Shown in pieces: positions 654 to 8,649 of a stretch of DNA of 48,094 nt. The DNA comes from Candidatus Desulfobia pelagia. GTDB lineage: Bacteria > Desulfobacterota > Desulfobulbia > Desulfobulbales > SURF-16. A program made the position numbers and the translations under genes. Position 1 is the first letter of the stretch. The number at the start of each line of letters is the position of its first letter. The DNA lies in the NCBI GenBank assembly GCA_014382295.1, contig JACNJZ010000091.1, forward strand, positions 5,529-53,622, in the 5' to 3' direction. The notes beneath the pieces were generated by a model. It was not told where the DNA came from. It ran no database searches and saw only the letters and a list, made by a program, of their open reading frames with translations.

Positions 654-3118
654 TGCAGCCTCCTTTTTTTTCAATTGCCCTGCTTTCTGCCACAGCACTT
701 TCCTATCAAATCCTGTTAATCCGCCTCTTTTCGATAATCCAGTGGCATCACTTCGCATACATGGTTATCAGTCTTTCCCTGTTGGGCTATGGGGCCAGCG
801 GTATGTTTCTCTGCCTGGCCCGGGACTGGCTGCGTTCCCGCTTTCCAACTTTCTTCATTGCCAATGGCCTGCTTTTTTCCTTCTCCAGCATCCTCTGCTT
901 CCTGATTGGCCAGAAGATCCCCTTTAATCCCCTGGAAATTGCCTGGGGAGGCCACCAGATTATCTATCTCCTTATCCTCTATCTGTTGCTTACTCTTCCA
1001 TTTTTTGCAGTGGCTAACTGCATAGGACTCGCCCTGTCGCATTTCACAAAGGATATCCCGCGCATATACGGCTTCGACCTGCTGGGTGCCGGAGCCGGAG
1101 CCCTCGGCATTATTGTCCTGCTTTTCCTGCTTAATCCAATGACTGCCCTGTACGTTATCGGTTCGCTTGGATTAGTCGCCACCGCCATCGCTTTTCTTGA
1201 ATCCCGCCTCCGCCCCCGTTGGATATCCGCCCTCCTTCTTGTGATTGCCATGGTCCTTCCACCCATACTTCACCAGCAAGATATCCCCTTACAGATCTCA
1301 CCGTATAAAAGCCTCAGCCAGACCCTTACTGTGATGGGAACGGAGGTGGCAGCTGAACGCAGCAGTCCATTGGGCTTACTCACTGTTGTGAAGAGTCCTG
1401 TTATCCCCTTCCGCCATGCTCCCGGCTTGAGCCTCAACACCTCGCTTGAACCGCCGACTCAACTGGGGGTCTTTACCGACGGCGAAGGTATGAGCGTTAT
1501 CACCAGCGATGATGGTCAACCCGACTCCTTTGCCTACACTGATTTTTTCACCTCAGCCCTGCCCTATCATCTTCTCAGCCTGCCACAGGTCCTGATCCTC
1601 GGCGCTGGAGGAGGTACAGATGTCCAGCAGGCCAGATACTTTGGCGCTGAAAGCATTGATGCTGTCGAACTGAACCCGCAAATGGCTGACCTTATCAATA
1701 ACACCTATGCCGACTTTGCCGGGAATCTGTATGCAAAAAAAAATATTCGTGTACATATTGACGAGGCACGAGGGTATGTTGCGGCAAGTAACAAACAATA
1801 CAATTTAATCCAGCTAGCCCTCCTCGATGCATTCAGCGCCTCATCCGCCGGCCTGTACGCACTCTCTGAAAGCTACACTTACACAACCGAAGCACTCATC
1901 GACTACATGACACATCTACGTCCTGGCGGAATGCTGGCTGTCAGCCGCTGGATCAAAGTGCCGCCGCGAGACAGCCTCAAACTCTTTGCTACTGCTGCAG
2001 CGGCCCTGGATGGCATGGGGATAAAGGAACCAGGTCGCCGTCTCATTCTCATTCGAAGTTGGAAGACAAGCACTTTGCTGGTCAAAAACGGTGAATTTGC
2101 AGAACAGGATATTGCGGTAGTTCGTCAATTCTGCGAGGACCGCTCATTCGACCTTGGATACTATCCAGGCATGATTACAGCTGAGGCAAATCGCCATAAC
2201 ATCCTCGACAGGCCCTATTTTCACGAAGGAGCCACTGCATTACTGAACAAGGCAGAAAGAGAATCCTTTTTAAAACGCTATAAATTCAATATTGAGCCTG
2301 CCACCGATGACCGTCCATATTTTTTCCATTTTTTCAAATGGAGTGCCCTTCCCGAACTGGTTTCGCTGCGGGCCAGCGGTGGCTTACCCTTGCTTGAGCA
2401 GGGCTATCTGGTCCTTATCGTCACGGGTGTTCAGGCGGTACTGGCCAGCGTGCTTTTGATCCTGGTTCCCCTCTGGTTCGGATATCTGAGGAAAATGAAG
2501 ATGTCGTCATCTTCCATTCGTCACAATTGTTTATGGGTGGTGGTTTATTTCTTTTCTCTTGGGATTGCTTTTCTGTTTATAGAAATGGCATTTATCCAGA
2601 AATTTATTCTCTTTCTCAGACATCCGCTTTATGCTGTGGGAGTTGTTGTCTCAGGATTTCTTTTATTTGCTGGATTAGGGAGCAGCTACAGCTCCTGCCT
2701 GAAAGAAAATACGGTTTCTCAAAAAAATGCTCTTATTATTGCAGTTGCAGTCATAGCAGGAAGTGCCCTCCTCTATCTTTTTCTGTTACCTGTTCTTTTT
2801 CAGAAGCTGCTCTGGATACCGGGCCCTCTGAAGGTAATTGTCTCCTTCTGCCTCATTGCACCAGTGGCATTCTGTATGGGAATACCCTTCCCCCTGGGAC
2901 TTTCCGGTCTTTCTTCCAGGGCGCCGGAACTGATTCCATGGGCGTGGGGAATCAACGGCTGCGCTTCTGTAATGAGTGCGGTGATGGCGACACTGCTTGC
3001 CACCCATATTGGATTCAGAGGAGTAATTGTTACCGCAGTCTGCCTCTATGTTCTCGCAGCACTCGCGTACCCGCATCCACAAAAATCATGTCATGCACCA
3101 GGAGTTCATTATGAATAA
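653..3118 (+). CDS. polytopic membrane protein with a central spermidine-synthase-like (class I SAM-MTase fold) domain
   Basis: 821-aa ORF with many hydrophobic helices at both ends. The central soluble part carries 'VLILGAGGGTDVQQARYFGAESIDAVELNPQM' and 'LIQLALLDAFS', typical of the PABS/SpeE-like fold. The start overlaps the pcm stop (TGATG). Confidence 0.7.
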   Translation: MQPPFFSIALLSATALSYQILLIRLFSIIQWHHFAYMVISLSLLGYGASGMFLCLARDWLRSRFPTFFIANGLLFSFSSILCFLIGQKIPFNPLEIAWGGHQIIYLLILYLLLTLPFFAVANCIGLALSHFTKDIPRIYGFDLLGAGAGALGIIVLLFLLNPMTALYVIGSLGLVATAIAFLESRLRPRWISALLLVIAMVLPPILHQQDIPLQISPYKSLSQTLTVMGTEVAAERSSPLGLLTVVKSPVIPFRHAPGLSLNTSLEPPTQLGVFTDGEGMSVITSDDGQPDSFAYTDFFTSALPYHLLSLPQVLILGAGGGTDVQQARYFGAESIDAVELNPQMADLINNTYADFAGNLYAKKNIRVHIDEARGYVAASNKQYNLIQLALLDAFSASSAGLYALSESYTYTTEALIDYMTHLRPGGMLAVSRWIKVPPRDSLKLFATAAAALDGMGIKEPGRRLILIRSWKTSTLLVKNGEFAEQDIAVVRQFCEDRSFDLGYYPGMITAEANRHNILDRPYFHEGATALLNKAERESFLKRYKFNIEPATDDRPYFFHFFKWSALPELVSLRASGGLPLLEQGYLVLIVTGVQAVLASVLLILVPLWFGYLRKMKMSSSSIRHNCLWVVVYFFSLGIAFLFIEMAFIQKFILFLRHPLYAVGVVVSGFLLFAGLGSSYSSCLKENTVSQKNALIIAVAVIAGSALLYLFLLPVLFQKLLWIPGPLKVIVSFCLIAPVAFCMGIPFPLGLSGLSSRAPELIPWAWGINGCASVMSAVMATLLATHIGFRGVIVTAVCLYVLAALAYPHPQKSCHAPGVHYE

Positions 3119-4640
3119 GAATGTGACACAGTTACCGGTTATCAAAAACTGTGCGTATTGTCTCAGTCATGTTCCGGACCTCGTGCAATATGGCTCCAAA
3201 CCATACCGTGAGATAGCTCATAATGCAGCCATGGAACCAGAGCTCAAGATGTTTCTTCGATCCTTTGAAAAAGCGGTCTGCTATCCGCCGAACCAAACCT
3301 TTATTGGCAACGTTTCTCCTGATGATCTTGCCACAACACCCAGGCCGTGGTTTGAAAAATCAGGACATCCAGAACAGGCTCAAGTTATAAAAAATGGAAA
3401 ATTCGGCGAAATTCTGGACCAGAAAACCTTTTTGGCCATACTGAAATGTGCTGACGCACTAAGCCCACCGCTCTTTGCAACATATGAGACTGCTCTGGAT
3501 AATCTGCATAAGCGTCTTGTCGCCCACCCCCTCTTACATGATCTTGCCGACAAACTGACAGAACTTCCTGCTGGTTTGACGGGACCGCCAGCAGGAAAAT
3601 TTTCTCCTCAGAGCCTGCCGCTGCGGGTCGGCGAAGATGTTTATGGTACTTTTTCAGGCGATCTTCGCTCTGAAGGTCGGAATGATGAGAATCTGACAGC
3701 CCGCAATCTGCTGGAAAACTTATGCACCAAAGCCTCAGGGGCCTTGGCTCTCAAATGGCTTTTGCATCGAGAAGGTATCGGCGCTGACCACATTGATTTT
3801 ATAATAAGTTGCGGTGAAGAGGCTTGCGGAGACCGCTATCAGCGGGGAGGTGGCGGTATGGCAAAGGCCATAGGTGAGATGTGCGGTTGTATCAACGCCT
3901 CAGGCATGGATATAAAGAATTTCTGCGCAGCACCTGCGTCGGCCCTGGTTACAGCCTCTGCTCTTGTTCACAGCGGAGTATTCAATCAAGTCATCGTTGT
4001 CGGCGGAGGCTCTCTTGCCAAGCTCGGCATGAAATTCCAGGCTTTCTTGCAGCATGGTATCCCGATACTGGACGATTGTCTGGCATCCATTGCTTTTTTG
4101 GTAACAAAAAACGATGGAATAAGCCCAATCATGCACTTGAAGAACGGTGCCATTGGCAAGGTCCCGATAGGTGCCAATACATCCGACGAGTCGGTGTTCC
4201 GCCATTATCTCCTCAAACCCCTTGAGAGTCTCGGTCTGCAATGCACTGATGTCGACAGATATGCCCTTGAACTCCAAAACCCAGAAATTATGGAATTTGC
4301 CGGCTCCGGAGATGTTGCCAAAAAAAATTACCGCAAGATAGCCGCCATGGCTGTCATGGCAAAACAACTCGACAAAAAGGATATGAACAGCTGGATTGAC
4401 CAGGTGGGTATGCCCGGCTTTGCACCAACCCAGGGCCATATCCCCTCTGCCGTCCCATATATTGGCCATGCCATGGAGGATATGCTGCAGGGAAAGATAA
4501 AACGGGCCATGTTTCTTTCCAGGGCAAGTCTTTTTTTGAATCGTTGTACCAACCTGCTGGATGGGGTCTCCTTTATTCTGGAGCGAAACCCCAACCTCAA
4601 AGATGGTATAAGAACAGATAAGGAGAAATTACCATGCTAA
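3111..4640 (+). CDS. grdC: glycine/sarcosine/betaine reductase complex component C, beta subunit (thiolase-like)
   Basis: The ORF track gives 3027..4640. I prefer the ATG at 3111, which is preceded by CAGGAG 6 nt upstream and gives 'MNKNVTQLPVIKN...'. GrdC-like motifs include 'RSFEKAVCYPPNQTFIGN', 'CGEEACGDRYQRGGGGMAKAIGE', 'NFCAAPASALVTASALV' and 'APTQGHIPSAVPYIGHA'. The stop overlaps the grdA start (ATGCTAA). Confidence 0.8.
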   Translation: MNKNVTQLPVIKNCAYCLSHVPDLVQYGSKPYREIAHNAAMEPELKMFLRSFEKAVCYPPNQTFIGNVSPDDLATTPRPWFEKSGHPEQAQVIKNGKFGEILDQKTFLAILKCADALSPPLFATYETALDNLHKRLVAHPLLHDLADKLTELPAGLTGPPAGKFSPQSLPLRVGEDVYGTFSGDLRSEGRNDENLTARNLLENLCTKASGALALKWLLHREGIGADHIDFIISCGEEACGDRYQRGGGGMAKAIGEMCGCINASGMDIKNFCAAPASALVTASALVHSGVFNQVIVVGGGSLAKLGMKFQAFLQHGIPILDDCLASIAFLVTKNDGISPIMHLKNGAIGKVPIGANTSDESVFRHYLLKPLESLGLQCTDVDRYALELQNPEIMEFAGSGDVAKKNYRKIAAMAVMAKQLDKKDMNSWIDQVGMPGFAPTQGHIPSAVPYIGHAMEDMLQGKIKRAMFLSRASLFLNRCTNLLDGVSFILERNPNLKDGIRTDKEKLPC

Positions 4641-5089
4641 AAGCAAAAAAGGTTATCGTGTTTGGGGAACGGGATGATATTTCCGGAAAAACAATTGGAA
4701 CATGCCTGCAGGCTGCCGGCGCGGAGATAATCTACGAATCAACAGCCTGTTTTGTCTGAACCGCAGCAGGAGCCGTAGGTCTTGCGGTCCAGGAAGAGGT
4801 GAAAAAGCTTGCTGAAAAACATGGGACAGAAAACCTTATAGTTGTCCTTGGAATTAATCAGCTGTCGACTATACAGATTATGACCCGAACCTTCAAAAGC
4901 GGCGATCCAAGTTACGCCGGACCTCTCGCTGGCGTTTCCCTTGGATTGGACAGCTATCATATTTTAGAGCTCAAGGATCATATCCCGGCAGATGTATGGG
5001 AACAGGAAATGGGAATGTATGAACTCGAGATAGAAGAAGAGGCGCAGGAAAACATTCTGAAAATCATGAAAGAAGCACGCCAGTATTAA
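4634..5089 (+). CDS. grdA: glycine reductase selenoprotein A, with the in-frame UGA at 4757..4759 read as selenocysteine
   Basis: The ATG at 4634 follows AAGGAG at 4620-4625. Translation gives MLKAKKVIVFGERDDISGKTIGTCLQAAGAEIIYESTACFV-[TGA]-TAAGAVGLAVQEEVKKLAEKHGTENLIVVLG...GDPSYAGPLAGVSLGL. This matches the GrdA signature 'CFVUTAAGA' and 'GDPxxAGPLAGVxLGL'. The track ORF 4799..5089 is the same frame (offset 165 nt) and is only the C-terminal two thirds. Total length is 151 aa. Confidence 0.9.
4760..4788 (+). promoter_or_regulatory. SECIS-like stem-loop immediately 3' of the grdA UGA
   Basis: In ACCGCAGCAGGAGCCGTAGGTCTTGCGGT, the outer 6 bp ACCGCA/TGCGGT are perfectly complementary. Inner A-U, G-C and G-U pairs are possible around a purine-rich apical loop. 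The structure starts at the nucleotide after the TGA. Confidence 0.55.
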
Positions 5090-5118
5090 ATTTTTCTATA
5101 CATAAAACTCGTTACTGT

Positions 5119-6447
5119 TCAGAAAATGGTCTGTTGATTAACAGGGGTAGCAAGAGCCTTCAAGGCTTTTTTGACAAGCTCTTTTCGTACTGTTTTTTCT
5201 TCCTCCAGCCTCAAAGCAGGGTCGCCAAAGGGATGAGGAATGGCAATAGTCGGGACGATACGATTGGCGCCAACCGTCTTGGAGATGGGGATAATCGAGC
5301 AGCAGTGAACAACGGGTATCCCGGCCCGTTCAATTTCTTTAACCATCGTTGCTCCGCAACGAGTACAGGTCCCTCAGGTCGAGGTAAGGATGACGGCCTG
5401 CACCCCGTCTGCGACCAGTATTTTGGCGATGCTTTCACCAAATTTCCTGGCATTGGCCACAGAGGTGGCATTTCCTACCGTGGCATAATAATATTCATGG
5501 AGTGTGCCGATGAATCCCTCCGCTGCCAATTCACACACTGCATCAAGAGGAAGAACCCGATTGGGATTTTCGTTGGCAAATGTCGGATCATAGCCGCCAT
5601 GGGCCGTCTGGTAAGACTCCGGAGTAAATGCAGATATCCCTTCAATGGAATACGTCCCGAAACACTGAGCATTGGCGGCAGATATTCTGTCCGGATTTCC
5701 TTTTGGAACAATTCCCCCTGATGTCACCAGAGCGAGCCTTGCCGTACTCATATCTTTTATTGCCGGAGCCGGTTTTACTCTATCAAAGGTCGGCATGGGA
5801 TATTCTGTGGTAAACGATTCCCCTTTCAGTTTCTTCAAAAGCATATCAATTGCCCGTGTCGCCCCTGACTGGGTATGAAAATAGTTCTGTCGAAATCCTC
5901 GGGGTATATACTCATCTTTTTCCGGCCAAATGGCCTCTCCCTCAAGTAATTTTAAACCAAGGACTCCAAGCTTCCGCACCGACTCTTCCATTGCCATGAC
6001 ATCTTCGCCGGCCTTGGCAATATAGATGTCTTTCCTGTATTCATTAACAGCAGGATTTTGAGGAAACATGGACGCAACTGCAGGGATTTCATAACGGGCT
6101 GCGACAGCCTTACAGAGAGCGCCGCACGCCAGCCCATAACGACCGGCGTTAAAAGCCGGACCAGCTAACAACATCACTGGCTTTTCAGCTTTTGCCGATT
6201 CAAAAAACGGCCTGAGCATATCAAGAACTTCCCGTACAGCCCTGTCAGTGTTTTCAGCCACATAATTGTCGCCAAAAGCAATGGTTGCAGTCACCTCTAT
6301 ATCAGGGAAAAATTTCTGCAGGATATTGCCGGGGCCTCTGGGGCCTTCAAGCAGGCAGGGTTTCAGAGAAGCCTTGTCCTCTCCACCTATCCCTCCAAAA
6401 AACTGATTCAGACAATGAATGATTCTGTATGGAAGTGCCATATTCAT
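5119..6447 (-). CDS. grdB: glycine/sarcosine/betaine reductase selenoprotein B, with the in-frame UGA at 5374..5376 read as selenocysteine
   Basis: Track ORFs 5374..6447 (357 aa, ending '...GVQAVILTST') and 5119..5346 ('MVKEIERAGIPVV...') are in the same frame. They are joined by TGA plus 9 codons 'GTCTRCGAT'. This gives 'ILTST-U-GTCTRCGATMVKEIERAGIPVV', the conserved Sec motif of GrdB. Total length is 442 aa. The start overlaps the grdE stop (ATGA). Confidence 0.9.
5346..5362 (-). promoter_or_regulatory. SECIS-like hairpin 11 nt 3' of the grdB UGA
   Basis: The minus strand reads TGA-gggacctgtac-TCGTTGC-GGA-GCAACGA. This is a 7-bp perfect stem beginning 11 nt after the UGA. Confidence 0.45.
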
Positions 6448-7688
6448 ATCTCCCGACAGCTGAGTCTCTGCGAACCAAGTTCGTTGGTAGATCCTATTAT
6501 CCCCTGGAGTTCAATCTCTAGGCTTCTGTCATCATGCACACTTTGCGGGTAGGCACCCGCAAGATGGCTCAGATCTTTTATGGGGCCGAGCAAACGGTCC
6601 ATCGGCGGCAGAATTATCAGGCCATTGGCGTTTCCTACAGAGATTATGGCATCGGCCTCAGAGGTTACATCTGCCAGTGACTGAGAGCCCCCATCAACTC
6701 CGGCATATTCATCGGTAATGGAGGTGGTTTTAACCCCGGCCTCTTCCAGGCCGCGTATCAACATCATCTGATCGGCGTCCGGATTACCAAACCCCTCTTT
6801 GGAAATGACGGCTCCCTCCGCGCCCATGCTTTTAACCAGTTCTATTGTCTTGGCGGAGGAGTCCTGTTTGGCTGCCAGCCTGACTGGCTCATTGGTAAGG
6901 ACGACGCCGACAAAATTCAGTTCTTTACCGTGTCTCTGATACATTTCCCGCAGCAGCGGATTATTCTGGTGGTGCCAGGTCGTATTTTTATCACAGGCGG
7001 AGACGCAGTTGCCTGAGGTGATTGATACATCCATCAGGACATGAGGAGAAATGATGCGGGGCATACCTGCCTTGGCATCCTGACCAAACACATACGTATC
7101 ATGTAAAAGGCCCTGACTCAGAAGCATATATACGTAGGCAACTTTTGGCAAATCCGGAGAGACTGGCAAAACATCTGGAGAGTCAAAGGTTTCAAGCAGG
7201 TCAGGTTCACTCGTTCGAATAGCCTCTCCAAGGAAATTTGCGGCAGCAAGTCCAGCAAGTCGAACAACCTCCTCATGCTGATGGGGCTCAAGACCAGGAA
7301 CCACCTCAATATCCAAAACCACATTAAAAGTCTGTGAAAAAGGCGAATAGGCCGCCCCCGGTCCGCTCATGTCGATGATACCTTCCTGGTATCCAACAAT
7401 TTTGCCGCAGGTTACGACCGCTACATTTTTCACAACATGATTTACACCTTCACCAGGAGCATCCCCCTTCACCTTGCACCAGGGTGCTATTACATCTTTA
7501 ACGCAGATTATCCGGGTTGACTCTTCCGGCTTGGCCAGGGCGATATCCAGAGCACGTATCCTGTTATCCTTTCCCAAGAGGAAATTACGCAAATCCTCTT
7601 TATTCACAACAAGGATTTTATCCCGCAGTAAGGATTTATGCCCGAATTCTATATCCTCAATCCAAATACTTCCTATTGTCAGGGCCAT
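6444..7688 (-). CDS. grdE: glycine reductase component B proprotein (alpha/beta subunits, pyruvoyl-forming)
   Basis: 414-aa ORF directly upstream of, and overlapping, grdB. GrdE-like segments are recognised: 'VVTCGKIVGYQEGIIDMSGPGA', 'LPKVAYVYMLLSQGLLHDTY', 'ITSGNCVSACDKNTTWHH' (the region of the self-cleaving Cys) and 'GVVLTNEP'. Confidence 0.8.
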   Translation of the reverse strand: MALTIGSIWIEDIEFGHKSLLRDKILVVNKEDLRNFLLGKDNRIRALDIALAKPEESTRIICVKDVIAPWCKVKGDAPGEGVNHVVKNVAVVTCGKIVGYQEGIIDMSGPGAAYSPFSQTFNVVLDIEVVPGLEPHQHEEVVRLAGLAAANFLGEAIRTSEPDLLETFDSPDVLPVSPDLPKVAYVYMLLSQGLLHDTYVFGQDAKAGMPRIISPHVLMDVSITSGNCVSACDKNTTWHHQNNPLLREMYQRHGKELNFVGVVLTNEPVRLAAKQDSSAKTIELVKSMGAEGAVISKEGFGNPDADQMMLIRGLEEAGVKTTSITDEYAGVDGGSQSLADVTSEADAIISVGNANGLIILPPMDRLLGPIKDLSHLAGAYPQSVHDDRSLEIELQGIIGSTNELGSQRLSCREI

Positions 7689-7940
7689 ATTCCACTCCGT
7701 TGCCTTTAGATCAATACAGCAGTGATACTTACTAGATATTCAAAGAGACTACGATATGGCTAATTGCAGCAGATCGGTAATTGAAACAAGTCCAATGCAT
7801 GTGCTATCCTCATCTGACACGATAATTTTCATTTCATCATTAAGTCCCATATTGTTACCCCCCTGTCATAATGAATTGTGATAAGTACCCTGGTTCACTT
7901 CACCTCTTCTTTAACTCAGTAATAGCTACGGCAGAAAGAC

Positions 7941-7978
7941 AAATACCAACAGAAGACAGTGTTCTTCTGCTGGTATTT
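7941..7978 (-). terminator. long hairpin, possible intrinsic terminator downstream of the VOC gene
   Basis: The minus strand reads AAATACCAGCAGAAGA-ACACTG-TCTTCTGTTGGTATTT. This is a 16-bp stem with one G-U on the minus-strand RNA (an A-C mismatch on the plus strand), followed by GTCTTTCT. Confidence 0.35.
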
Positions 7979-8241
7979 AGTGACAGCTTCGTGACAACCT
8001 TATTTTTCATTGTTTTTCCTAAATGAAGGTTGGAAACAGTATGTTGCGGAATGTATTTAAAATGTAATGTTGATTGACTGAAGTGTCAAAAAAACTTCCT
8101 CAATTCCCCACCTTTTTTTAAGGGGTTCCGTGAGAAAAGGTGCACTTTGGGTTTGAGACAAATACAGTCGGAAGGTTAGGCTTGGGAATAAACGAGATAT
8201 TCGCACATTTGACATGGCAATCATAACGTCAAGCGAGGAGC

Positions 8242-8649
8242 TCATAGAAATGGATTGTGCGCTATCTCCCAATAGAAGCCATCGGGATCCCTGAAGTAGC
8301 CTGAATATCCTCCCCAGAATACTTTTTGCCCTGGTTTGACGAGTTCGGCACCGGCAGCAACCGCTTCTTCCAATGTCTGATCTACCTCTGAGAGAGAAGC
8401 AACATTATGAGCCAGAGTAAACCCTTGAAACCCAGCACCTTCAGCTGAGATTGAGATGTCCTCTGCCAGCTTGTCTCTGGGGTAGAGTGAGAGCATTGTT
8501 CCGGTCATTTTAAAAAAAGCTATGCCTTCAGGGCCTTCCTTGCGAGGCAGGTTTAACCCATTTTCGTAAAAATTGATTGAGCGCTGAAGATCTTTAACAC
8601 CAAGTGTAATAATAGTGATATGTGGTTTCATTTCGAATGACTCACTCAT
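8242..8649 (-). CDS. VOC-family (glyoxalase/bleomycin-resistance fold) protein
   Basis: 135-aa ORF with 'ITIITLGVKDLQRSINFYENGLNL' and a C-terminal 'GGYSGYFRDPDGFYWEIAHNP', typical of VOC beta-alpha-beta-beta-beta modules. Confidence 0.85.
   Translation of the reverse strand: MSESFEMKPHITIITLGVKDLQRSINFYENGLNLPRKEGPEGIAFFKMTGTMLSLYPRDKLAEDISISAEGAGFQGFTLAHNVASLSEVDQTLEEAVAAGAELVKPGQKVFWGGYSGYFRDPDGFYWEIAHNPFL

Follow-up and report, generated by a model that had tools for sequence, protein, structure and literature searches.

A selenoprotein B family gene with an in-frame UGA, probably a selenocysteine codon, and a SECIS hairpin in a marine Desulfobulbales bacterium

In the window analysed here (the whole stretch of 48,094 nucleotides, 48 kb, from Candidatus Desulfobia pelagia), two minus-strand ORFs, 6447..5374 and 5346..5119, are parted by a TGA in the same frame. 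This arrangement raises the question of whether the TGA ends a gene or whether the two ORFs form one gene whose internal UGA is read as selenocysteine (Sec). If the latter holds, it also raises the question of which reductase the gene belongs to. On profile, alignment and RNA-family evidence, we conclude with a probability of roughly 0.93 that the two ORFs together make up one gene, which encodes the Sec-containing subunit of a protein B complex from the family of glycine, sarcosine and betaine reductases.

Results

A single reading frame and a single family profile span the UGA

On the minus strand, 6447..5119 forms a single frame of 443 codons with a terminal TGA at 5121..5119 and a sole internal stop, TGA at 5376..5374 (codon 358). 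The claim of the sequence-only reading that the two ORFs share one frame is thus confirmed directly. In translation, the residues flanking the internal UGA are ...AVILTST-*-GTCTRCGATMVKEIERAGIPVV..., and the S-T-U-G context opens a U-x2-C-x2-C motif whose two cysteines, Cys359 (5367..5365) and Cys362 (5358..5356), are both invariant in alignment A3. This redox motif, predicted earlier for the joined product, is indeed found there, and the same motif has been described for GrdB (PMC13188914). The two halves do not belong to different proteins: the joined product matches TIGR01918 with 568 bits (cut-off 65) in one stretch across the UGA, residues 8-442 corresponding to profile positions 1-430 of 431. 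It also matches PF07355 (GRDB) with 462 bits (cut-off 22).

The product had been given as 442 aa, which is what the single frame yields from ATG 6447, and the conserved start points to a slightly shorter protein. A Shine-Dalgarno sequence, GGGAG, lies at 6450..6454 (minus strand), within the 3' end of the upstream grdE-like gene. It is only 2 nt from ATG 6447, in place of which relatives have CTG, GTA, TTG or GTG. ATG 6441 is kept in relatives with a Shine-Dalgarno spacing of 8 nt, as here, and AGGGAGGT followed by ATG is conserved in nine of them. Because ATG 6447 is too near GGGAG and is replaced in relatives while ATG 6441 is conserved, the gene more likely spans 5119..6441 (minus strand; 440 codons plus stop), which would give a 440-aa product with Sec356.

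An AF2 model of this protein (pLDDT 83.9) places Sec356 in a strand-to-helix loop, and the alternation of strands and helices goes on past the UGA. A sequence search of the PDB returned no matches, and a Foldseek comparison of the model with the PDB retrieved generic alpha/beta domains only (TM ≤0.22). Metatranscriptome fragments were found on either side of the UGA, a hint that the gene is expressed.

The UGA column is conserved across phyla

We then consider the Sec column in 82 related loci covering four or more phyla (Desulfobulbales, Bacillota, Synergistota, Fusobacteriota and Spirochaetia). All 82 carry TGA at this column and an open frame after it. Among the best 120 protein homologues in the database, 73 end at ...LTST, 46 have W and one has G at this position, and none has Cys. 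The W and G are attributable to gene callers using genetic codes 4 or 25, that is, to mistranslation. The column therefore behaves as a Sec column, as had been proposed, and few or no Cys homologues have been reported for GrdB (PMC1794560). From this conservation, the internal UGA (5374..5376, minus strand) is most probably read as selenocysteine.

As for the decoding machinery, none of selA, selB and selD was detected among the family-scanned ORFs of the window, and a tRNA scan of the same 48 kb found no tRNA, hence no selC (tRNA-Sec). Selenoproteins including SelD have been reported in Desulfotalea psychrophila, another member of the Desulfobulbales (PMC1794560), which, like the second Sec-UGA gene described below (grdA), speaks indirectly for Sec decoding in this genome.

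A SECIS_4 element begins at the base after the UGA

The Rfam family SECIS_4 (RF01990) matches 5373..5336 on the minus strand, inside the coding sequence, over its full length (63 bits with a gathering threshold of 38, E 9e-13; model positions 1-38 of 38). The match shares with the family the 6-bp stem, the GGN loop, two outer pairs and the start at the base after the UGA. It differs, in ways that are not material, by A as the loop base and by an extra U-A pair that extends the stem to 7 bp. The 7-bp hairpin TCGTTGC-GGA-GCAACGA described earlier is present at 5362..5346 with exactly the spacing given, 11 nt (5373..5363) after the UGA. Its conserved part is shorter, since the seventh pair (U5362-A5346) varies by lineage and is formed by just 66% of homologues. 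The conserved core occupies 5347..5361 and consists of a 6-bp stem, CGUUGC/GCAACG, closed by the apical loop GGA. In addition, the hairpin shows all four features of the bSECIS consensus model of Zhang & Gladyshev, in the form summarised in PMC13188914, including a 3-nt loop, GGA, starting with GG, a stem of 6-7 bp and 18 nt from UGA to loop.

Folding energies are −10.3 kcal/mol for the UGA plus 38 nt and −7.5 kcal/mol for the 17-nt hairpin. A single-sequence fold of 52 nt gives −10.5 kcal/mol (z = −0.88), which is not significant, as 35 of 200 shuffled sequences fold as well. The proposed folding check is thus answered by the full-length SECIS_4 match and the consensus features, and not by folding energy, which alone is no better than that of shuffles. 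For this reason, we judge the hairpin on comparative evidence.

Across homologues, pairing in the 6-bp stem holds in 98% of cells, and the stem codons are frozen (CGT 81/82, TGC 80/82, GCA 82/82, ACG 68/81), while the third base of the loop is free (T in 55, C in 20, A in 6 and G in 1). Synonymous entropy falls to 0-0.17 bits at stem codons +5, +6 and +8 and to 0.64 bits at +9, compared with 1.2-2.2 bits at flanking invariant residues. The hairpin is under RNA-level selection beyond the protein code. Because the stem is nearly invariant, covariation is thin: it consists of two wobble changes and of two compensatory double changes in a Peptoclostridium locus (L060), which keeps the stem as AGAUGC/GCAUCU. 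By comparison with homologous sequences, namely the SECIS_4 match, the TGA in every locus and the collapse of synonymous variation confined to stem codons, the hairpin is more than a chance structure.

The spacing had been likened to that of the minimal E. coli fdhF SECIS, and the likeness holds: in both, a 17-nt stem-loop lies 11 nt from the UGA (for fdhF, the upper stem-loop of Liu et al. 1998, as cited in PMC8659212). Both apical loops begin with G. Unlike fdhF, the hairpin here has no bulged U in its 5' arm, its loop is the 3-nt GGA rather than a loop with G23 and U24, and its sequence is unrelated. SelB-SECIS pairs are frequently species-specific.

The TGA as stop, reassigned codon or error

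If the UGA were a true stop, the locus would encode a truncated protein of 355-357 aa and a separate or dead remnant of 75-84 codons, as in a pseudogene or a split gene. Gene callers split the gene in this way, and the Sec machinery is absent from the 48-kb window. Against this, the 84 codons past the UGA keep the frame, with 72-86% identity within the Desulfobulbales clade, the TGA followed by an open frame recurs throughout the 82 loci, the family profile runs through the UGA, a curated SECIS model matches directly 3' of it, and the predicted strand-helix pattern appears unbroken. We consider a true stop very improbable. A genome in which UGA is read throughout as Trp or as Gly, under genetic code 4 or 25, would agree with the W and G residues seen among the best 120 homologues, were these not accounted for by gene callers applying just those codes. 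TGA is the terminator of 23 of the 46 long ORFs in the window, and both the grdB-like and the grdE-like gene are among these 23. Moreover, the scanned homologous loci belong to lineages that use the ordinary code 11, Clostridia and Synergistota for example, and we saw no conserved genes in which an in-frame TGA fills a Trp or Gly column. Genome-wide reassignment is even less credible than a true stop.

Finally, the TGA might be a sequencing or assembly error for TGC or TGT (Cys) or for TGG. Contigs from four runs of four studies span 5100..5525 and show no difference at the TGA; their only variants nearby are at 5353, a loop base, and at 5365. An independent ENA assembly of a 98.8%-identical strain (L001) has the same TGA break. 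Nothing was found in favour of such an error, and its chance is negligible. Based on the four-run contigs, the TGA in all homologous loci and the use of TGA as a stop in the window, we reject sequencing error, pseudogene and codes 4/25, and retain the reading of one gene with a selenocysteine codon.

Partner genes and a convergent layout in Desulfobulbales

The grdB-like gene directly follows a gene for a GrdE/GrdG-like proprotein of 414 aa (6444..7688, minus strand; PF09338, Gly_reductase, 515 bits), whose stop TGA at 6446..6444 lies 2 nt before ATG 6441. This partner contains the motif S-G-N-C-V-S-A-C with Cys228 (7007..7005) and Cys232 (6995..6993), and its Cys228 aligns with Cys242 of GrdE from Bacillota (Firmicutes). 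In C. difficile GrdE, the pyruvoyl precursor Cys is reported at the position matching Cys242 (PMC9908766).

On the opposite strand and convergent with the grdB-like gene lies grdA, encoding selenoprotein A (4634..5089, plus strand; NF040748, 154 bits, cut-off 130; PF04723). An in-frame TGA interrupts it too, at 4757..4759 in the context C-F-V-U, which makes it a second gene with a Sec UGA, 285 nt away; a search of 4500..5600 against Rfam at E up to 1 returned no family for a grdA SECIS. Immediately upstream of grdA is grdC, for the beta subunit of component C (3111..4640, plus strand; NF040746, 537 bits, cut-off 450). The convergent grdE-grdB / grdA-grdC layout is common to six Desulfobulbales genomes, including that of the cultured Desulfogranum marinum DSM 2058.

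Using a sequence verified by NF040747 (L056) as query, we found no GrdD homologue in the window, in the L001 assembly or in 10 Desulfobulbales loci, and the 48-kb window has no ORF for a WCGPC thioredoxin. ORFs of the Peptoclostridium locus that had been taken as GrdD candidates were rejected as hydrogenase-like and SpoIIE-like. In that Peptoclostridium, grdC and grdD likewise sit apart from grdB, and by analogy grdD and thioredoxin genes may be found elsewhere in the present genome. Rfam detected no glycine riboswitch, and permissive E-values over the grdE-like leader (7600..8300) gave chance-level matches only. Adjacent to the grdB-like locus there is no gene for a betaine or other transporter. 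The flanks of two related loci (L006 and L011), with an aminotransferase, an epimerase, an AMP-binding enzyme and cytochromes, are variable and give no clue to substrate.

The substrate of the protein B complex

The gene had been named grdB. Membership of the selenoprotein B family is well founded, and the glycine-specific part of the name is not established: the protein scores 533.3 bits with the GrdB equivalog TIGR01917, below its cut-off of 602.2. It is likewise below the cut-offs for GrdF (sarcosine; NF040794, 565.8 bits against 800) and GrdH (betaine; NF040795, 498.5 bits against 775). Since all three scores fall short, we only infer the substrate, a glycine-like amine.

The family resemblance is nevertheless close. 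GrdB of Eubacterium/Peptoclostridium acidaminophilum, Clostridium sticklandii and Clostridioides difficile also has about 435-440 aa, carries Sec in S-T-U-G-T-C-T-R-C, has a SECIS hairpin of nearly the same nucleotides, directly follows a GrdE-type proprotein with a pyruvoyl Cys, and has GrdA and GrdC nearby. On the other hand, identity to these proteins is only 46-53%, and their operons run grdE-grdA-grdB-grdC-grdD on one strand, whereas here grdE-grdB and grdC-grdA converge, with no grdD or trx genes in the window. GrdF, the sarcosine reductase B beta subunit, and GrdH, the betaine reductase selenoprotein B, share the family, the Sec position and, in the loci seen, the SECIS class; the present protein is far below the cut-offs of both. 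More distant members of the superfamily are PrdB of D-proline reductase, also a selenoprotein, whose model (TIGR04483) matches here with 93 bits over residues 207-433 only, far below its cut-off of 300, and FarB of fluoroacetate reductase, which is without the C-x2-C present here.

Less probably, the protein works by the same Sec/SECIS mechanism but does not act on glycine, its substrate being sarcosine, a different N-substituted glycine or some other amine; 'grdB' would then be a misnomer. Besides its own scores, those of three other clade members with TIGR01917 (L003, L006 and L011; 515-555) also fall below the cut-off, while five of six tested homologues from other phyla pass with 639-862 (a Halanaerobiaceae sequence, L049, fails with 593). 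The Desulfobulbales proteins form a monophyletic clade set apart by the midpoint root, in which positions conserved elsewhere carry fixed changes (Y10C, G131A, S256A, T382S and L405F), and their grdE-like partner has lost 12 and 3 residues through deletions specific to the clade. The family has also diversified onto further substrates such as fluoroacetate (PMC10838667). The cut-offs, however, were trained mostly on Firmicutes, and a low score may therefore mean phylogenetic distance only. In addition, the partner retains both Cys of the self-processing site, as glycine and sarcosine enzymes do and unlike GrdI (the GrdH partner), which is without the processing Cys residues, or FarE/FarB. Both S-T-U-G and C-x2-C are intact in the B subunit, again as in glycine and sarcosine enzymes, and the locus has no betaine or other transporter beside it. 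Three observations count against glycine as such: the score below the GrdB cut-off, the lack of a grdD or thioredoxin gene nearby and the lack of a glycine riboswitch.

Discussion

The preferred reading, one selenoprotein B gene with an internal Sec codon, suggests a mechanism along the lines of the established bacterial Sec pathway. UGA 5376..5374 would be decoded as selenocysteine during translation: the mRNA 3' of it would fold into a stem of 6-7 bp with a GGA loop starting 18 nt after the UGA, and this hairpin would recruit SelB, GTP and Sec-tRNA(Sec) to the ribosome. The outcome would be a 440-aa protein with Sec356 in S-T-U-G-T-C-T-R-C. Its gene is probably translationally coupled to that of the upstream GrdE-type proprotein, which keeps the Cys predicted to turn into a pyruvoyl group. 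The resulting protein B complex would bind a Schiff-base-forming amine, most probably glycine, and pass the carboxymethyl group on to the Sec of GrdA, encoded convergently with GrdC.

A UGA with a downstream SECIS in selenoprotein B is a well-known arrangement, and the gene described here is an ordinary new member, in this case from marine Desulfobulbales; Sec decoding and the biology of the reductase family are already well understood. The value of the finding is mainly for annotation. Callers split this grdB-like gene into ORFs of 357 aa and 75 aa, and its homologues are mis-annotated, with the UGA translated as W or G and one relative named 'beta-aspartate methyltransferase'.

In the literature library that we searched, no paper tied glycine reductase to the Desulfobulbales. 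More speculatively, the Desulfobulbales clade could be a functionally distinct branch, either with a substrate that is none of glycine, sarcosine and betaine or as a glycine reductase that is wired differently. This idea, which we hold to be improbable, draws on the convergent layout, on the lack of nearby grdD, thioredoxin and transporter genes and on scores below every substrate-specific cut-off.

As judged from the sequence, a Sec-containing protein B subunit beside a Sec-containing GrdA points to a need for selenium in this Desulfobulbales bacterium of marine or estuarine origin, and to a reductase of the Stickland type or the reductive-glycine type. If the system is wired differently, it might, for example, terminate a reductive glycine pathway in Desulfobulbales that reduce sulfate or disproportionate sulfur; something else would then stand in for the GrdD step, or its gene would lie at another place in the genome.

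Reading frame and authenticity of the TGA

On the minus strand, a grdB-like frame runs from 6447 to a terminal TGA at 5121..5119. Its single internal stop is the TGA at 5376..5374, around which the translation reads ...AVILTST-*-GTCTRCGATMVKEIERAGIPVV..., and re-reading the sequence confirmed both the coordinates and the description of a split grdB frame in the sequence-only reading. The single joined frame proposed there stands, and its length of 442 aa is revised: ATG 6447, 2 nt from a GGGAG Shine-Dalgarno, is CTG, GTA, TTG or GTG in nine relatives, whereas ATG 6441 is conserved, as is its position 8 nt from a conserved AGGGAGGT. This conservation makes a start at ATG 6441 and a 440-aa product with selenocysteine (Sec) at residue 356 most likely. 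The TGA of the upstream grdE-like gene (6446..6444) finishes 2 nt ahead of ATG 6441, a gap that implies translational coupling.

The in-frame TGA is real. The gene is split identically in a separate ENA assembly of 98.8% identity (L001), and Logan contigs spanning 5100..5525, from four runs of four different marine or estuary studies, carry the TGA unchanged, the only nearby variants being at 5353 (third loop base) and 5365. Genome-wide UGA reassignment is excluded because TGA is the ordinary stop of 23 of the 46 long ORFs in the window, including the grdB-like gene and the grdE-like gene upstream. The other 23 end with TAA and none with TAG, a trinucleotide that is not rare in the window (580 on both strands; TAA, 1276; TGA, 1967); its absence as a stop may reflect plain avoidance or point to some special role of TAG.

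Family identity and the UGA column

With X placed at the UGA, the joined product was aligned to TIGR01918 (glycine/betaine/sarcosine/D-proline family reductase selenoprotein B; cut-off 65 bits) in one stretch at 568 bits, residues 8-442 covering profile positions 1-430 of 431, and to Pfam GRDB at 462 bits. The two halves thus fall in the same family, as had been proposed, and the unbroken match across the UGA indicates that they are one protein. Modelled with AlphaFold2 (pLDDT 83.9), the 440-aa product has Sec356 in a loop that joins strand 349-354 to helix 363-372, with strand-helix alternation carrying on past it, which fits a single domain that would be truncated by termination at the UGA. 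No solved structure resembled the product, either by sequence or by fold of the model.

Homologues were searched in a collection of 5.8 billion proteins and the UGA column was scored in the best 120 matches: 73 stop exactly at ...LTST, 46 have W, one has G and none has Cys. The W and G come from gene callers that applied code 4 or 25 to the UGA. Public sets (P0024-P0120) hold the family cut at the UGA or misread at the Sec position, and one entry, a Desulfobacterales bacterium SG8_35 relative (P0100), is labelled 'beta-aspartate methyltransferase'. A survey of one genome per species gave 80 loci, to which two metagenome loci were added. All 82, from Desulfobulbales, Bacillota, Synergistota, Fusobacteriota and Spirochaetia, have TGA in the column followed by an open frame. 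The sequence-only reading had required Sec or Cys here; an all-TGA, Cys-free column agrees with the few or no Cys homologues reported for GrdB (PMC1794560). Halanaerobiaceae homologues (L049:7036-7060, L070:7039-7063, L075 after 4325) read U-G-T-D-T-R-C, with Asp for the first Cys of U-x2-C-x2-C. The grdB of a 'delta proteobacterium' MAG (L078, 6001-7033) has a frameshift around residue 305, probably an assembly error.

The SECIS hairpin

A 7-bp perfect inverted repeat, TCGTTGC-GGA-GCAACGA, lies where it had been reported (5362..5346, minus strand), 11 nt after the UGA. Its likening in spacing to the minimal E. coli fdhF SECIS was accurate, the latter being described (PMC8659212) as a stem-loop of 17 nt that is separated from the UGA by 11 nt; sequence and loop differ, and the bulged U of fdhF is absent. 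From the first base after the UGA, 5373..5336(-) gives a full-length match to Rfam SECIS_4 (RF01990) of 63 bits (gathering score, 38 bits; E 9e-13). All four published features of the bacterial SECIS consensus are present, namely a 3-nt loop starting GG, a stem of 6-7 bp, a UGA-to-loop distance of 18 nt and an MFE of -10.3 kcal/mol. Of the suggested folding evidence, these two results support a SECIS and fold energy against shuffles does not, the hairpin alone being thermodynamically unremarkable (z = -0.88). The weight of the case for this predicted element is in comparison, not in single-sequence fold energy.

More specifically, of the four stem codons, three have a synonymous-codon entropy of 0-0.17 bits (Arg CGT, 81/82; Cys TGC, 80/82; Ala GCA, 82/82) and the fourth (Thr ACG, 68/81) has 0.64 bits, compared with 1.2-2.2 bits at equally invariant flanking residues across 82 sequences. 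The loop codon GGN is free in its third base (T55, C20, A6, G1). The 6-bp stem CGUUGC/GCAACG pairs in 98% of cells; the seventh pair, part of the original claim, is lineage-variable, forming in only 66% of sequences, yet shows four double changes. In Peptoclostridium (L060, 7057-7107) the stem is kept via two double changes, AGAUGC-GGU-GCAUCU, with Arg AGA and Ser UCU in place of Arg CGU and Thr ACG. No other variant in the 82 loci is fully compensated; a C-to-U wobble occurs in two loci of Cetobacterium.

Four metagenome runs each contained otherwise non-matching contigs that aligned to all or part of 5315..5406 (~92 nt round the SECIS). These contigs probably represent grdB from other organisms, and their confinement to this segment indicates nucleotide conservation well beyond that of the rest of the gene.

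Gene neighbourhood and expression

The grdE-like partner (7688..6444, minus strand; 414 aa; PF09338, 515 bits) retains S-G-N-C228-V-S-A-C232, aligned with Cys242 of Bacillota GrdE sequences, the position at which C. difficile GrdE has the residue that is converted to the pyruvoyl group (PMC9908766). GrdI (betaine reductase) and FarE (fluoroacetate reductase) are without these Cys residues (PMC10838667), whereas the partner has both, which points to a Schiff-base-forming substrate such as glycine or sarcosine.

Convergent with this pair, the plus strand carries grdC (3111..4640; 537 bits, cut-off 450) and grdA (4634..5089; 154 bits, cut-off 130), the latter with an in-frame TGA at 4757..4759 in the context C-F-V-U-T-A-A-G. 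No Rfam match to a grdA SECIS was found, even at E up to 1. A candidate 5-bp hairpin, CCGUA-GGUCU-UGCGG, whose loop begins 18 nt past the UGA, covaries in relatives (CUGCA/UGCAG in L010 and L011, CCGUC/GACGG in L006).

Six Desulfobulbales genomes, that of cultured Desulfogranum marinum DSM 2058 among them, conserve convergent grdE-grdB and grdC-grdA pairs; most loci of other phyla carry grdE-grdA-grdB-grdC on a single strand. Among the loci compared, the convergent layout is specific to the Desulfobulbales clade. Halanaerobiaceae loci (L049, L070, L075) have grdC and grdA upstream of grdE and grdB, and L078 has grdE-grdB-grdC-grdA on one strand. With an NF040747-verified query, no GrdD homologue was found in the window, L001 or ten Desulfobulbales loci (L002-L011), grdC being present. 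The 48-kb window yielded no thioredoxin-type (WCGPC) ORF and no tRNA-Sec or sel genes.

Upstream of the grdE-like gene, a promoter-like TTGACA-17-TACATT (8089..8061, minus strand) precedes a 17-bp hairpin that carries a T-rich tail (7979..7940, minus strand), ~250 nt ahead of the start codon. Together (8089..7940) they may form a leader or attenuator; the hairpin matches no Rfam family, and the region is only partly common to L003, a clade locus.

In a marine metatranscriptome (run X15), fragments fall on grdC, the grdE-like gene, grdA across its UGA and both sides of the grdB-like UGA, with contig fragments on the cluster (3000..8300) at 99-100% identity. This hints at expression in situ, such libraries being able to contain DNA.

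Placement and proposed mechanism

The closest relatives of the product are from Desulfobulbales MAGs (80-83% identity), followed by Desulfocapsa, Desulfurivibrionaceae, Desulfobulbus and Desulfogranum (64-66%) and other phyla (46-53%). Neighbour-joining placed the Desulfobulbales sequences together in one clade, separated by the midpoint root. This clade has a few fixed differences at positions conserved elsewhere, and two deletions in its partner subunit, of 12 and 3 residues, are specific to the clade. The window and three further members score 515-555 bits, under the NCBI GrdB equivalog cut-off of 602, and far under those of GrdF and GrdH; of the six homologues from other phyla that were scored, five exceed the GrdB threshold and one, Halanaerobiaceae L049 (593), does not. 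Profile matches establish the gene as a selenoprotein B family member; because of these scores, its glycine specificity is only putative.

Given what is established about Sec decoding in bacteria and about glycine reductase, the observed sequence features suggest the following steps, in which the insertion of Sec, the binding of SelB and the nature of the substrate are inferred. With the ribosome at the S-T codons, the hairpin, which lies 12-29 nt past the UGA, would bind SelB, GTP and Sec-tRNA(Sec), and Sec would be placed at the UGA in competition with RF2. The substrate amine would be bound via a carbonyl group of the protein B complex, and Sec356 would attack the alpha-carbon, releasing ammonia or amine. 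The carboxymethyl group would then pass to the Sec of GrdA and, via GrdC and GrdD, yield acetyl phosphate.

The reading of the split ORFs as one grdB-like gene with a predicted Sec codon is correct and ordinary: this Desulfobulbales-clade gene is a further member of a catalogued selenoprotein family, and its hairpin belongs to a SECIS class that has likewise been catalogued before.
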